NCBI GenBank assembly: GCA_040758355.1
Contig: JBFLWF010000011.1
Coordinates: 1-64,000, forward strand
DNA from: Nitrospirota bacterium
Lineage (GTDB): Bacteria > Nitrospirota > Thermodesulfovibrionia > Thermodesulfovibrionales > Dissulfurispiraceae
Direction: 5' to 3'
DNA: 64,000 bases
In this document: one piece after another, positions 9,001 through 12,000 of the stretch
Numbering within the stretch: position 1 is the stretch's first letter
Layout: every line of letters starts with the position of its first letter
Made by a program: the position numbers

Positions 9001-12000
9001 ACCTCTTATGCCATGAAAGGAGACAGGGAACGCCTGCTGAAAGAGGGATTTGTGCATTACATATCAAAACCAATAGACAAAAACAGTTTTATAGAGGACG
9101 TAGAAAAAAATATTAAAAAATGCAGTTAAATAGGCAAAAAACCTTTGAGAAATCCTATAGATACGATATACTATTTTCTATGAAAAGATGGCTTCTCAAT
9201 ATATCCCTCATCATTACAGCATTGTTTCTTCTTCCATCCATTTCTCTTGCTACAACAGAATATGCACGCCAGACAGGAATGTCATGTAAAGAATGCCATA
9301 TCGACCCCATGGGAGGCGGTTCACTTACACATACGGGGAAACAATTCCTCGATGATATGAAAATAAAGGGTCTTTACAGGCCATTGACAGGCACACAGAA
9401 GGTTGTACGATTCTTTATAGGCTATATACATCTAATGACTGCAATAGCATGGTTCGGTACAATACTTTATGTCCATATACTCCTGAAGCCTGCATATGCT
9501 GCAAGGGGACTTCCGAAAGGCGAACTATTTTTAGGCTGGCTGTCTATTATCATCCTTGCAATTACAGGTACGCTTCTTACCATATCAAGAATACCTGCAT
9601 GGAAGGTTTTATACACAACACGGTTTGGCATATTGTTAAGCATAAAAATTATCCTGTTTATGATAATGGCATCGACAGCAGCTATAGTCACATTTGTAAT
9701 AGGGCCGCGACTGAAAAGAAAGATTGCTGCAACCGATATCTCAACAGGAAAGAAAGAATTTACAATTGAGGATTTACATAGCCTTGACGGAAAGGAAGGA
9801 AGGCCTGCGTTTGTCGCATATAAAGGCAAGATTTACGATGTAACAAACAGCAAGCTCTGGAAGGATGGTTCTCATGTAAAAAAGCACCTTGCAGGACATG
9901 ACCTTACAGATGCGCTTAAAACAGCGCCCCACGGGGAAGAAAAGATACTCTCCATGCCAGAGGTCGGGATACTGGTAGAGGCAGGAGTTAAGGAAACAAG
10001 ACCCATGCCTGTAAGGATATTCTACATATTTGCCTATACAAATCTCGCCTTTGTATTCCTGATAACATTCATAATAGCGCTCTGGAGATGGGGATAAAAA
10101 GCGGCAATAGTTGCATTGACTCTGACCTCTGAGAGCGATATAATTTTTATAAATTATCGAAGCAGTATAAAAGTGAATGTTAGGACAGTCCGTGCGAAAC
10201 ACCTTTTGAAGTCTTCACGGTTGGGGAATCTCGCAAGAAATTTGCAATCTTCGTTAGGGAAAGGGGAAAGGAAAAGCACCGATAGGAGACTTGCTCCCGT
10301 GCGGGGCAGATGATGAGAGGAGGAGTTATGAATGACAGAAGGCTTTTTTTGAAGAACGGTCTTTTGGCAATTGTCGGCATAGCCGCATTGTCAAAGACAC
10401 CGAAGGCAGAGGCAGCAGCCGAGACAAAAAAGTACGGCATGATTATCGACCTGAACCGATGCACGGGATGTCAGTCATGCGTCATTGCCTGCAAGGCACA
10501 GAACAAGACCGTGCAGGACAGGTTTAATACCAGGATACTCACCATTGAGGACGGCATCTACCCGGATGCGAGGATTGTCTTTACACCTATCCTCTGCAAT
10601 CAATGTGAAAATCCGCCATGCGTGCCTGCCTGCCCCCTAAAGGCTACATTCAAGCTTCCTAACGGTATTGTGGTGACTGACTGGGACAAATGCCAGGGCA
10701 TAGGCGCCTGTGTGCCTGCCTGTCCCTATGAAGCAAGGTTTCTTGATCCGAGATACAAGGGAGAGTCCGGAGGCAAGGTGGACAAGTGCGACTTCTGCCT
10801 GAACAGACTGGAAAAAGGGCTGCTGCCGGCATGCGTTGAGGCATGTTCACCAAGGGCGAGGCTCTTTGGTGACCTGAATGCACCCGAAGGCGAGTTCGCA
10901 GAATACCTTACGAGAACAGACTTGAAGAGGAGGAAGGCTGAGATGAAAATAAAGACTTCTGTCCTGTATGTGCCTTCTCGTAAAAGCAAGAAGGGGGGTT
11001 CTCTATGAAAAAGGATATCCTTAATATGATAGAATCCGGCATTTCCGTAACACGCCGCTCATTTATAAAACTGGCTGCGGCTGCAGCAGGAGCCATGGCA
11101 TTCGGGATTGATAAAGCAAAGGCTGCGGTTAAATGGCTCAGTCCGAGAAGGGTTCAGAAGTCGGCAGCAACGCAGCTTGACAAGGATGTAAAGGTAGTTC
11201 ATTCGGTCTGTCTCGGCTGCAATTCAAGATGCGGAGTAAGGGCAGTGGTTGAGAACGGAAAACTTGTAAAACATTCAGGCAATCCCTATCATCCTTACAA
11301 CAGTAGATTTGAACCAGTAGATTACAAAACACCTGTTAAAGAAACTCTGGGCTTATCATCTCCTGTGTGCGGTAAATCCCAGAATATGCCTACTTATGTC
11401 TATAACCCTTATCGTATTTTAAAGCCGTTGAAGCGTGCAGGGGAGAGGGGATCAGGGAAGTTCGAGCCCATTGAATGGGAGCAATTGATTAACGAGGTAG
11501 CTGACGGCGGAAAGCTCTTTGCTCATCTCGGTGAAGACAGGGTTGTTCCGGGCATTAAGGATTTAAACAGGGATGATCTGATAAATCCCGAAGCGCCTGA
11601 ACTCGGCACTGTAAGAAACGGTTTTGTCTTTATCGGAGGAAGGGACCAGAATGCGAGAAAGGAGTTTTCTGACAGGTTTGTAAAAGAGGCCCTCGGCTCG
11701 GTGAACCGTATTGGACATACCGACATATGCGGCATCGGCTTCAGGCAGGGAAACATGGCTTTTACCGAGAGGAAAGATGTGGAGATAAAGGCAGACCCCC
11801 TCGGCGCGGAGTATATTCTTGTTTTCGGTGCAAATATTTATGAGGCCCTTCAGCCCGGTGTAAATACTTACGGCGCTCTTGTTGGAAAGAGGAGTTCGGA
11901 GGGCAAGGTAAAATTCACAATTGTTGACCCCCGTGCCACAAATGCCTCCACACATGCAGAACAATGGATACCCATAAAGCCAGGACAGGACGGCGCATTT

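Follow-up and report, generated by a model that had tools for sequence, protein, structure and literature searches.

Closest described systems

The diheme cytochromes b (b561/CybB, FdnI, HyaC, and cytochrome b6), with MsrQ as a functional analogue, offer one parallel to the protein analyzed here, whose modeled membrane bundle may resemble theirs in shape (Z 9.4 to 10.8, among many unrelated bundles) and which has a similar proposed role in transmembrane electron transfer. It differs from them in lacking two bis-His pairs, in having its putative ligands on helices 1 and 3, and in having the hemes for electron entry and exit within one chain. HemJ (PgdH2) also has a four-helix CopD-like domain with a related helix-1 motif, and its heme ligands are His16 and a Lys. 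It sets a precedent for b-type heme in this fold, being named a b-type hemoprotein in the available text of a review (PMC13564367), and it matches the same Pfam CopD model (E 1.8e-7) as our target protein. However, the YLPR and NE-P invariants of HemJ are absent from the target, which has extra heme domains, and direct profile comparison was not significant (probability 7% in local and 0.15% in global mode), with target residues H84, G130, and K156 falling on HemJ H8, G65, and K85 only in a forced alignment. Proteins of the CopD/YcnJ/YebZ group share with the target the Pfam CopD domain and a conserved His, Gly, and Lys; the target, in contrast, is one four-helix unit with no CopC, has heme c and b5 domains attached, and lies in an N-oxide neighborhood. 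The accessible sections of one study give the CopD-domain His a part in copper uptake by YcnJ and YebZ and read the conserved His of YcnJ as a copper ligand (PMC13344008); no positional equivalence of that residue to H84 is assumed here.

Cytochrome b5M (6NZX and 6VZ6; Tamarit, Teakel et al.) is known as a free domain of 8 kDa without an assigned function, and is placed at the prokaryotic root of the MAPR proteins (bioRxiv 2021.11.17.468889, available portion; bioRxiv 2021.11.30.470528). Within this class, the same two papers (bioRxiv 2021.11.17.468889, 2021.11.30.470528) connect one CPR subgroup, cytb5MY, with ferric-reductase-like genes; the words “CopD” and “cytochrome c” do not occur in the accessible main text of the first, which deals with the origin of b5M. 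The b5 domain of the target is 45-51% identical to these proteins and retains both axial His residues, the Ser, and the third His, but is inserted into a membrane bundle. A further comparison is with epsilon-Hao and other HAO-like reductases (6H5L, 4QO5), of which the reductive octaheme forms are described as abundant in anoxic habitats, with a Met-x7-Trp motif as the mark of reductive epsilon-Hao (PMC8940962, available sections). Octahemes fused or adjacent to relatives of the target belong to the HAO family and lack the cross-link Tyr, whereas an attached membrane module was not found described for such enzymes in the literature searched. Finally, the heme c domain resembles the heme region at the N-terminus of OmhA (6QVM; E 5.9e-7), where a signal peptide is likewise followed by 11 residues and then CxxCH, and it may resemble the heme domain of Cyc2 as well. 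In the target this heme is attached to an inner-membrane bundle, unlike the surface multiheme or porin of OmhA and Cyc2; the available parts of the OmhA and Cyc2 papers do not name a sixth heme ligand.

A probable three-domain heme protein downstream of norCB

The target gene lies in a window of 64,000 nucleotides, the whole stretch of DNA analyzed, on contig JBFLWF010000011.1 of a Nitrospirota bacterium (family Dissulfurispiraceae, order Thermodesulfovibrionales). An intact reading frame free of internal stops occupies 9120-10097 on the forward strand. Since this longest frame overlaps the upstream gene at its 5' end and the closest relatives are about 305 residues long, we placed the likely start at the ATG at 9180, giving a protein of 305 aa (9180-10097, + strand) along 100% of which relatives of 304-308 aa align. 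Residues are counted from this ATG, and those in the survey's finding were 22 lower. The window genome has one copy of the gene.

All parts of the protein are encoded on the + strand. A predicted signal peptide (residues 1-24, 9180-9251, with a hydrophobic stretch at 3-26) is probably cleaved after A24, as an Ala 12 residues ahead of the first Cys in 88% of 311 sequences and small residues at -14 suggest. It is followed by a small, putatively periplasmic monoheme c domain (9252-9365) with its CxxCH at residues 36-40 (9285-9299). TM1 (9408-9485), predicted to run inward, contains H84 (9429-9431) and H99 (9474-9476); TM2 (9516-9590) runs outward with E115 and, at the depth of H84, T129-G130; and TM3 (9621-9704) runs inward with K156 (9645-9647) and the conserved M163. 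The predicted cytoplasmic b5M (MAPR-like) domain (9747-9977; H232, H236, and H251) precedes TM4 (10005-10091), which runs outward, closes the four-helix bundle, and is the octaheme fusion point in relatives. An AlphaFold2 model built with 49 sequences (pLDDT 87, pTM 0.75) places long helices at 71-107, 113-137, 148-184, and 276-304, with the b5 domain between the last two. The order of domains proposed in the survey's finding, from signal peptide and CxxCH through CopD-type helices and b5 domain to a last helix, is thus upheld by the intact frame, the model with its four long helices, and Pfam matches to CopD (E 8.8e-10; 39.4 bits against a cut-off of 32.1) and Cyt-b5 (E 2.1e-7). The CopD model is matched by 49/49 family members at E 0.1. 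The survey had also reported a CopD match at E 3.5e-10; we reproduced this value with the NCBIfam CopD equivalog NF033808, but the score is only 40 bits against a cut-off of 195 and covers positions 140-263 of 295 only.

The claimed fit of the b5 domain to 6NZX and 6VZ6 at about 1 Å was likewise recovered (rmsd 0.9 and 1.0 Å, respectively; Z 14.7), as against an rmsd of at least 3 for classical b5. H232 and H251 align to the axial H42 and H61 of 6NZX/6VZ6, and the modeled domain is a member of the cytochrome b5M class.

As the survey had noted, norB is two genes away here: norC (4526-5206, +; diheme c subunit of cNOR) and norB (5219-6613, +; catalytic subunit) are separated from the target by a sensor kinase with a PilJ-type periplasmic domain, HAMP, and GAF and by a single-domain response regulator (together 6641-9129, +). 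This spacing is repeated in one further locus (L031), while in a genome of the same genus (G013) the kinase and regulator are absent and norC, norB, the target gene, and a NapH-like gene are contiguous. In the window, the gene for a NapH/MauN-like membrane polyferredoxin, the usual downstream neighbor in this order, lies at 14178-15104 (+). The + strand between 4200 and 10400 showed no terminator-like site, Rfam gave no matches over 1-20000, and a search for RNA records covering 4526-10300 listed none. The HAO-like query matched nothing in the window genome, leaving cNOR as the only nearby partner candidate. For Ca. Nitrobium versatile, the available text of one study reports high norBC transcription, and its Table 1, as available, has no CopD entry (PMC8906906).

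A palindrome, TATGAT-N4-ATCATA, occurs upstream of norC (4407-4426) and again upstream of the NapH-like gene (14126-14145), and is a probable regulator site. Across loci it precedes norC in 30/40, NapH-like genes in 23/23, cupin genes in 11/20, CBS genes in 11/17, and HAO-like genes in 6/25, and the target itself in only 5/123. Elsewhere in the window genome it also precedes what, to judge by sequence, are probably NifU-like genes and a ferrochelatase-like gene. Patterns of the FNR, HcpR, and NsrR type showed no enrichment ahead of the target gene (0-3 of 123).

Octaheme fusions and membrane topology

In six Desulfobacterota loci the reading frame is extended to 726-794 aa with nine CxxCH motifs, and the octaheme part begins about 20 residues past helix 4. 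Fusions of this kind, some of them partial, number six among the 46 representatives listed, and 4/4 long relatives found are octaheme fusions, a sample that says little about the absence of other fusion kinds. Fused and adjacent octahemes alike belong to the HAO family (best PDB match 6H5L, E 2.5e-32), and the cross-link Tyr is absent. The fused forms have Trp at the cross-link position and Met eight residues before it in 6/6 fused loci and in 3/4 fused proteins checked; protein P0168 has a variant of Met-x7-Trp that the pattern missed. Because c hemes are attached outside the cytoplasmic membrane, a chain with heme c at its start and an octaheme after helix 4 should have both ends outside, which would put the b5 insert, three crossings later, inside. 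Lys and Arg are densest after helix 3 (mean 5.4 in residues 174-190), consistent with an internal b5 domain, and the other loops discriminate poorly. The arrangement proposed by the survey, heme c outside and b5 inside, is therefore well supported on sequence grounds by an octaheme joined directly behind the last helix. The survey had recorded neither this octaheme link nor the conservation of K156.

Conserved residues and putative heme sites

Conservation was scored over 312 distinct full-length sequences, thinned at 60% identity to 62 representatives. Eleven positions (C36, C39, H40, H84, G130, K156, W227, G230, H232, H236, and H251) are invariant in 312/312 and also in all 62. The survey's claim of two invariant His residues in helix 1 holds for H84 and fails for H99, which is present in 291/312, a count inflated by the use of a pattern containing H99 in the 80-locus scan, and in 54/62 after thinning (lost in 8/62). 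E115 is also absent in 19 of the 21 sequences without H99, although 13 of these 19 are near-copies of one cluster. M163 is kept in 280/312, and there is no conserved His in helices 2-4 of the 312 sequences. H84 and K156 are 72 residues apart in 42/42 loci examined, even though the selection pattern permitted other spacings. H84 lies on a conserved stripe of positions 77-81-84-88-91-95 and K156 on another, 149-152-156-159-163-167; with G130, each would sit about seven residues in from the outer end of its helix, by a geometry derived from the sequence. The invariant pair of the membrane part, as read from the alignment, is H84 and K156 near the outer face, so that a wire of two bis-His hemes is unsupported: against the four conserved His in two bis-His sites of a diheme membrane cytochrome b, the target has one invariant His and H99.

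The residues themselves are no proof of heme, because a His, Gly, and Lys equivalent to H84, G130, and K156 are common to unrelated stand-alone CopD-like proteins (profile comparison probability 98.5%) and because the CopD His of YcnJ has been read as a copper ligand. Comparison of residues 70-156, folded on their own, with solved heme bundles returned generic hairpin matches only. For heme c, residues 25-83 hold no conserved His, Met, Cys, or Lys apart from the CxxCH, and the predicted cleavage site is constantly 11 residues before the first Cys. The sixth ligand is possibly the N-terminal amine, as in cytochrome f, where that group serves as a heme ligand; H84 or K156 could also take this position.

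Genomic neighborhoods of relatives

Neighborhoods were compared in the 80 closest of 259 loci and in a second set of 33 Desulfobacterota loci, with seven contigs common to both. The first set includes 39/80 loci with norB, which is the immediate upstream gene in 19 (frameshifted in one, a fragment in another), and 20/80 with an HAO-like octaheme gene, immediately upstream in 9; a NapH-like polyferredoxin gene follows directly downstream in 11/80. A norB, HAO-like, or ONR-like gene falls within 8 kb in 51/80 loci, and in 21/30 of those with at least 6 kb on either side. Of the 33 Desulfobacterota loci, two have norB, in neither case next to the target homologue; six have HAO fused to it, and four more have a separate HAO-like gene adjacent. 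Other neighbors encode HPP-CBS, cupin, DUF1858, DUF488, and Crp proteins, genes of a nitrosative-stress type.

A tree of 130 non-redundant loci (quick search, midpoint root) puts 20/20 norB-adjacent rows in one clade of 41 and HAO linkage in three separate clades. The wider candidate partner of the family is a reductive-type HAO-like octaheme, and norB adjacency is confined to one clade. Of the survey's statement that the gene goes with norB and a polyferredoxin in Thermodesulfovibrionales, the polyferredoxin part is borne out by the 11 NapH-like downstream neighbors, and the norB association is lineage-specific. On the same tree a reductase lies near the gene in 30 loci, 22 loci do not extend far enough to judge, and 40, including whole deep clades, have no N-oxide reductase where at least 3 kb was available on each side. 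Stand-alone copies occupy several deep clades, some of them next to bacterioferritin, rubrerythrin, or a cbb3 cluster.

By a hand count in the Nitrospirota sample, in which kin are not independent, norB occurs in 22/41 genomes carrying the gene and HAO-like genes in 10/41, with either in 27/41 carriers versus 11/110 non-carriers. Fourteen of the 41 carriers lack matches to both query genes; of five of these that were checked, two encode a more distant yet clear member of the HAO family. These 14 carriers, the 40/130 loci without an N-oxide reductase, and the 8/30 norB genomes without the target gene speak against a donor role for the protein, as do, in the window genome, the presence of a bc-type cytochrome b and the lack of a match to the HAO-like query. 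A further point of this kind is that qNOR, which needs no cytochrome donor, adjoins a target homologue at two loci; at one locus the neighbor is a cbb3 oxidase cluster.

A candidate membrane electron donor

Judged from sequence and model, the protein joins an exported domain with one heme c, a bundle of four helices with the CopD fold, and, on the cytoplasmic side, a b5M domain. By the comparisons made here it falls outside the CopD equivalogs, HemJ, and the bis-His diheme cytochromes b, though it may act like the last. We infer a heme b at H84/K156, an outward flow of electrons, and contact with a partner enzyme. Our preferred reading, to which we assign a probability slightly below one half (roughly 0.45), is a one-chain membrane module with three hemes (b5M, a His/Lys heme b, and heme c) that donates electrons to periplasmic N-oxide reductases. 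Electrons supplied by a cytoplasmic reductant would enter at the b5M heme, traverse the inner half of the membrane by way of a bound quinone or further heme at a His99/Glu115 site, reach a heme b in the outer half of the bundle ligated by His84 and Lys156, and leave through heme c to the periplasmic reductase. The acceptor would be an HAO-like octaheme nitrite/hydroxylamine reductase where one is present, and cNOR in this order. Such outward flow would spend membrane potential, which fits a role in clearing toxic N-oxides quickly better than one in energy conservation.

Outside the b5 domain, the fold is matched best by 4D2, a designed diheme bundle (Z 12.3, rmsd 2.0, 104 residues aligned) whose hemes, according to the available text, are bound across opposite helices (PMC10400981). 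Further matches include cytochrome b6, a hydrogenase cytochrome b, FdnI, and superoxide oxidase; Z values of the size seen for all of these are common among helical bundles. A relay of some kind is needed, because a single heme near the outer face would be too far from the cytoplasmic b5 heme for fast transfer, for which the limit is about 14 Å. H99/E115 is the sole candidate; it is dispensable in some lineages, and H99 has no conserved partner ligand. The one-chain transmembrane redox wire of the survey's finding therefore stands as to a redox role, the best reading of the protein, and falls short as to a continuous chain of hemes, which is not established because the helix-1 His residues are not an invariant pair and helices 2-4 offer no second conserved His. 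The most specific version, a single-chain wire from b5M through a His/Glu-bound quinone or heme and a His/Lys heme b to an amine-capped heme c, acting as dedicated donor to HAO-like reductases and cNOR across anaerobic lineages, is doubtful.

Alternative functions

Two alternatives retain some weight because H99/E115 is the only relay and can be lost in some lineages. The first would make the protein a quinol dehydrogenase and membrane anchor, in which quinol is oxidized at the His/Lys heme and electrons pass through heme c to the reductase, with b5M as a side entry or redox sensor and no wire through the membrane. This would explain why the sole complete ligand pair of the membrane part is near the outer face, H99/E115 could then form the quinone site, and the HAO fusion and neighborhoods fit it equally. 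The b5M ligands, kept in 312/312, are hard to reconcile with an accessory role, however, and the window genome already encodes its own bc-type cytochrome b; we regard this function as unlikely. The idea that the module substitutes for a missing bc complex was rejected, since 4/5 carriers encode cytochrome b.

Less probable again is a part in heme handling, where b5M would take up cytoplasmic heme and the bundle would pass it on, or keep it reduced, for assembly or repair of heme-rich N-oxide enzymes. The place of b5M at the prokaryotic root of MAPR, the range of heme enzymes among the neighbors (cNOR, qNOR, HAO-like, ONR-like, cbb3), and the palindrome shared with the presumed NifU-like and ferrochelatase-like genes are all in keeping with this, but a covalent heme c and an in-frame octaheme fusion would suit an electron partner better. 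It is very unlikely that NO or nitrite is bound, sensed, or reduced by the protein itself, with a labile His/Lys heme as the site: the nitrosative-stress-type genes nearby speak for this, yet the protein has no output domain and no conserved polar pocket except H84/K156.

The database label would make the protein a CopD-type copper importer, as the Pfam scores of the target and of all 49 members and the role of the CopD His in YcnJ and YebZ would allow, and the survey itself had raised the caveat that the membrane His might bind copper. The match to the CopD equivalog is, however, partial and far below its cut-off, and CopC was absent in 5/5 carrier genomes tested, with controls positive in 4/14. 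No copper gene was found among the recurring neighbor families annotated (32 proteins scanned, mostly representatives of 51 clusters), and to our knowledge neither cNOR nor HAO uses copper; copper import is thus highly improbable. Least tenable is a dehydrogenase of the HemJ kind that acts on protoporphyrinogen or coproporphyrinogen and brings its own electron acceptors, since the H-x6-WF-x4-Y motif and helix-3 Lys shared with HemJ, and the absence of both HemJ and HemY from the window genome, are set against PF03653 matches in 0/49 members at E 0.1, HemY in 2/5 and an AhbD-like heme synthase in 5/5 carriers, and an HAO fusion left unaccounted for.

Significance and distribution

The family is real, widespread, and mislabeled, and its tie to cNOR is narrower than first read. 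No description of the target architecture was found in the literature searched, which excludes most subscription papers. The fusion nominates a candidate membrane donor, purifiable from one gene, for reductive HAO-like octahemes. The family also allows a direct test of whether heme is bound by the conserved His and Lys of CopD-fold proteins, and of the function of b5M domains in prokaryotes. A redox role, if true, would correct many database annotations, and a true wire would provide the first physiological role for cytochrome b5M, root of the eukaryotic MAPR proteins, and would make the CopD fold widely a cytochrome scaffold.

Forty-one of 151 Nitrospirota genomes carry the gene (43 listed, with two b5-only matches dropped and two partial ones kept), as do 33/301 genomes of a second phylum, in which the named loci are from Thermodesulfobacteriota/Desulfobacterota. 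Protein searches gave 2545 matches at 90% clustering and 1926 among 50% representatives, both figures including single-domain matches, and a search with residues 1-185 recovered the same close relatives among the 120 matches listed. Databases list the family as “CopD family protein” or “cytochrome B5”. Urate_ox_N, the domain that accompanies cytochrome c in PuuD-type urate oxidase, was hit by 4/49 members at E 0.0033 at best. In the ESM Atlas the heme c domain alone found nothing above 0.81, and the whole protein found clusters of the same architecture, unnamed or automatically named only. The cultured Dissulfurispira thermophila, as its source names it, has a homologue (P0006) that is 87% identical to the target.

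Candidate nitrosative-stress regulon

An FNR/Crp-like palindrome variant, TATGAT-N4-ATCATA, has window copies at 4407-4426 and 14126-14145, on either side of the target, the heme c-CopD-cytochrome b5M gene. Across the window and related loci, this palindrome lies upstream of norC in 30 of 40 cases and of the NapH-like polyferredoxin gene in all 23 (23/23), and it also precedes cupin, CBS-HPP and HAO-like genes. Elsewhere in this genome (G000), copies occur on contigs C4, C8, C17, C19, C21 and C29, and NifU-like, DUF1858-like, monoheme cytochrome and ferrochelatase-like genes also carry it upstream. 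The genes sharing this site look like a nitrosative-stress regulon.

The target itself has a promoter-like site matching 10/12 in the 9145-9180 region, which ends 7 bases 5' of the likely start codon. No clear ribosome-binding site was seen at this start, and the transcript is possibly leaderless.

Gene neighborhood of the target

NorC (4526-5206) has two cytochrome c domains, as in all 25 aligned relatives, and thus an extra fused heme c domain. A sensor kinase gene at 6641-8755 encodes a PilJ-type periplasmic domain, the beginning of which may be similar to the nitrate-sensing P-box of NarX. In the related locus L048, norB is reduced to a 197-aa fragment (L048:7293-7883) directly 5' of the target homologue, without norC.

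The target is separated from the NapH-like gene by genes for a TtrB-like Fe-S subunit and a TtrA-like 1012-aa molybdoenzyme (10310-14043), both scoring below their model cut-offs, with no TtrC/NrfD anchor gene beside the pair. A strong promoter-like site (10116-10144) is found 5' of this region, and the 165-nt leader at the Ttr-like genes has no Rfam match.

Related gene families

At L185:6451-10188 and L189:6255-9975, a relative of the target with an HAO-like octaheme cytochrome c fused after helix 4 is directly preceded by a free HAO-like octaheme gene, itself preceded in L189 by a tetraheme gene. This arrangement suggests hetero-oligomers or two donor routes.

Two proteins, P0133 (655 aa) and P0143 (457 aa), carry four to six cytochrome b5-type domains arranged in tandem, with other Pfam domains absent. 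In one Nitrospirota family (G004, G014, G023, G032, G041, G049 and G056), each genome encodes two members of the HemJ family, a strong one alongside a divergent one. Nitrospirota loci L207-L219 encode stand-alone four-helix CopD/DUF4149-like proteins of 140-180 aa, with His, Gly and Lys at the same positions as in the target bundle.
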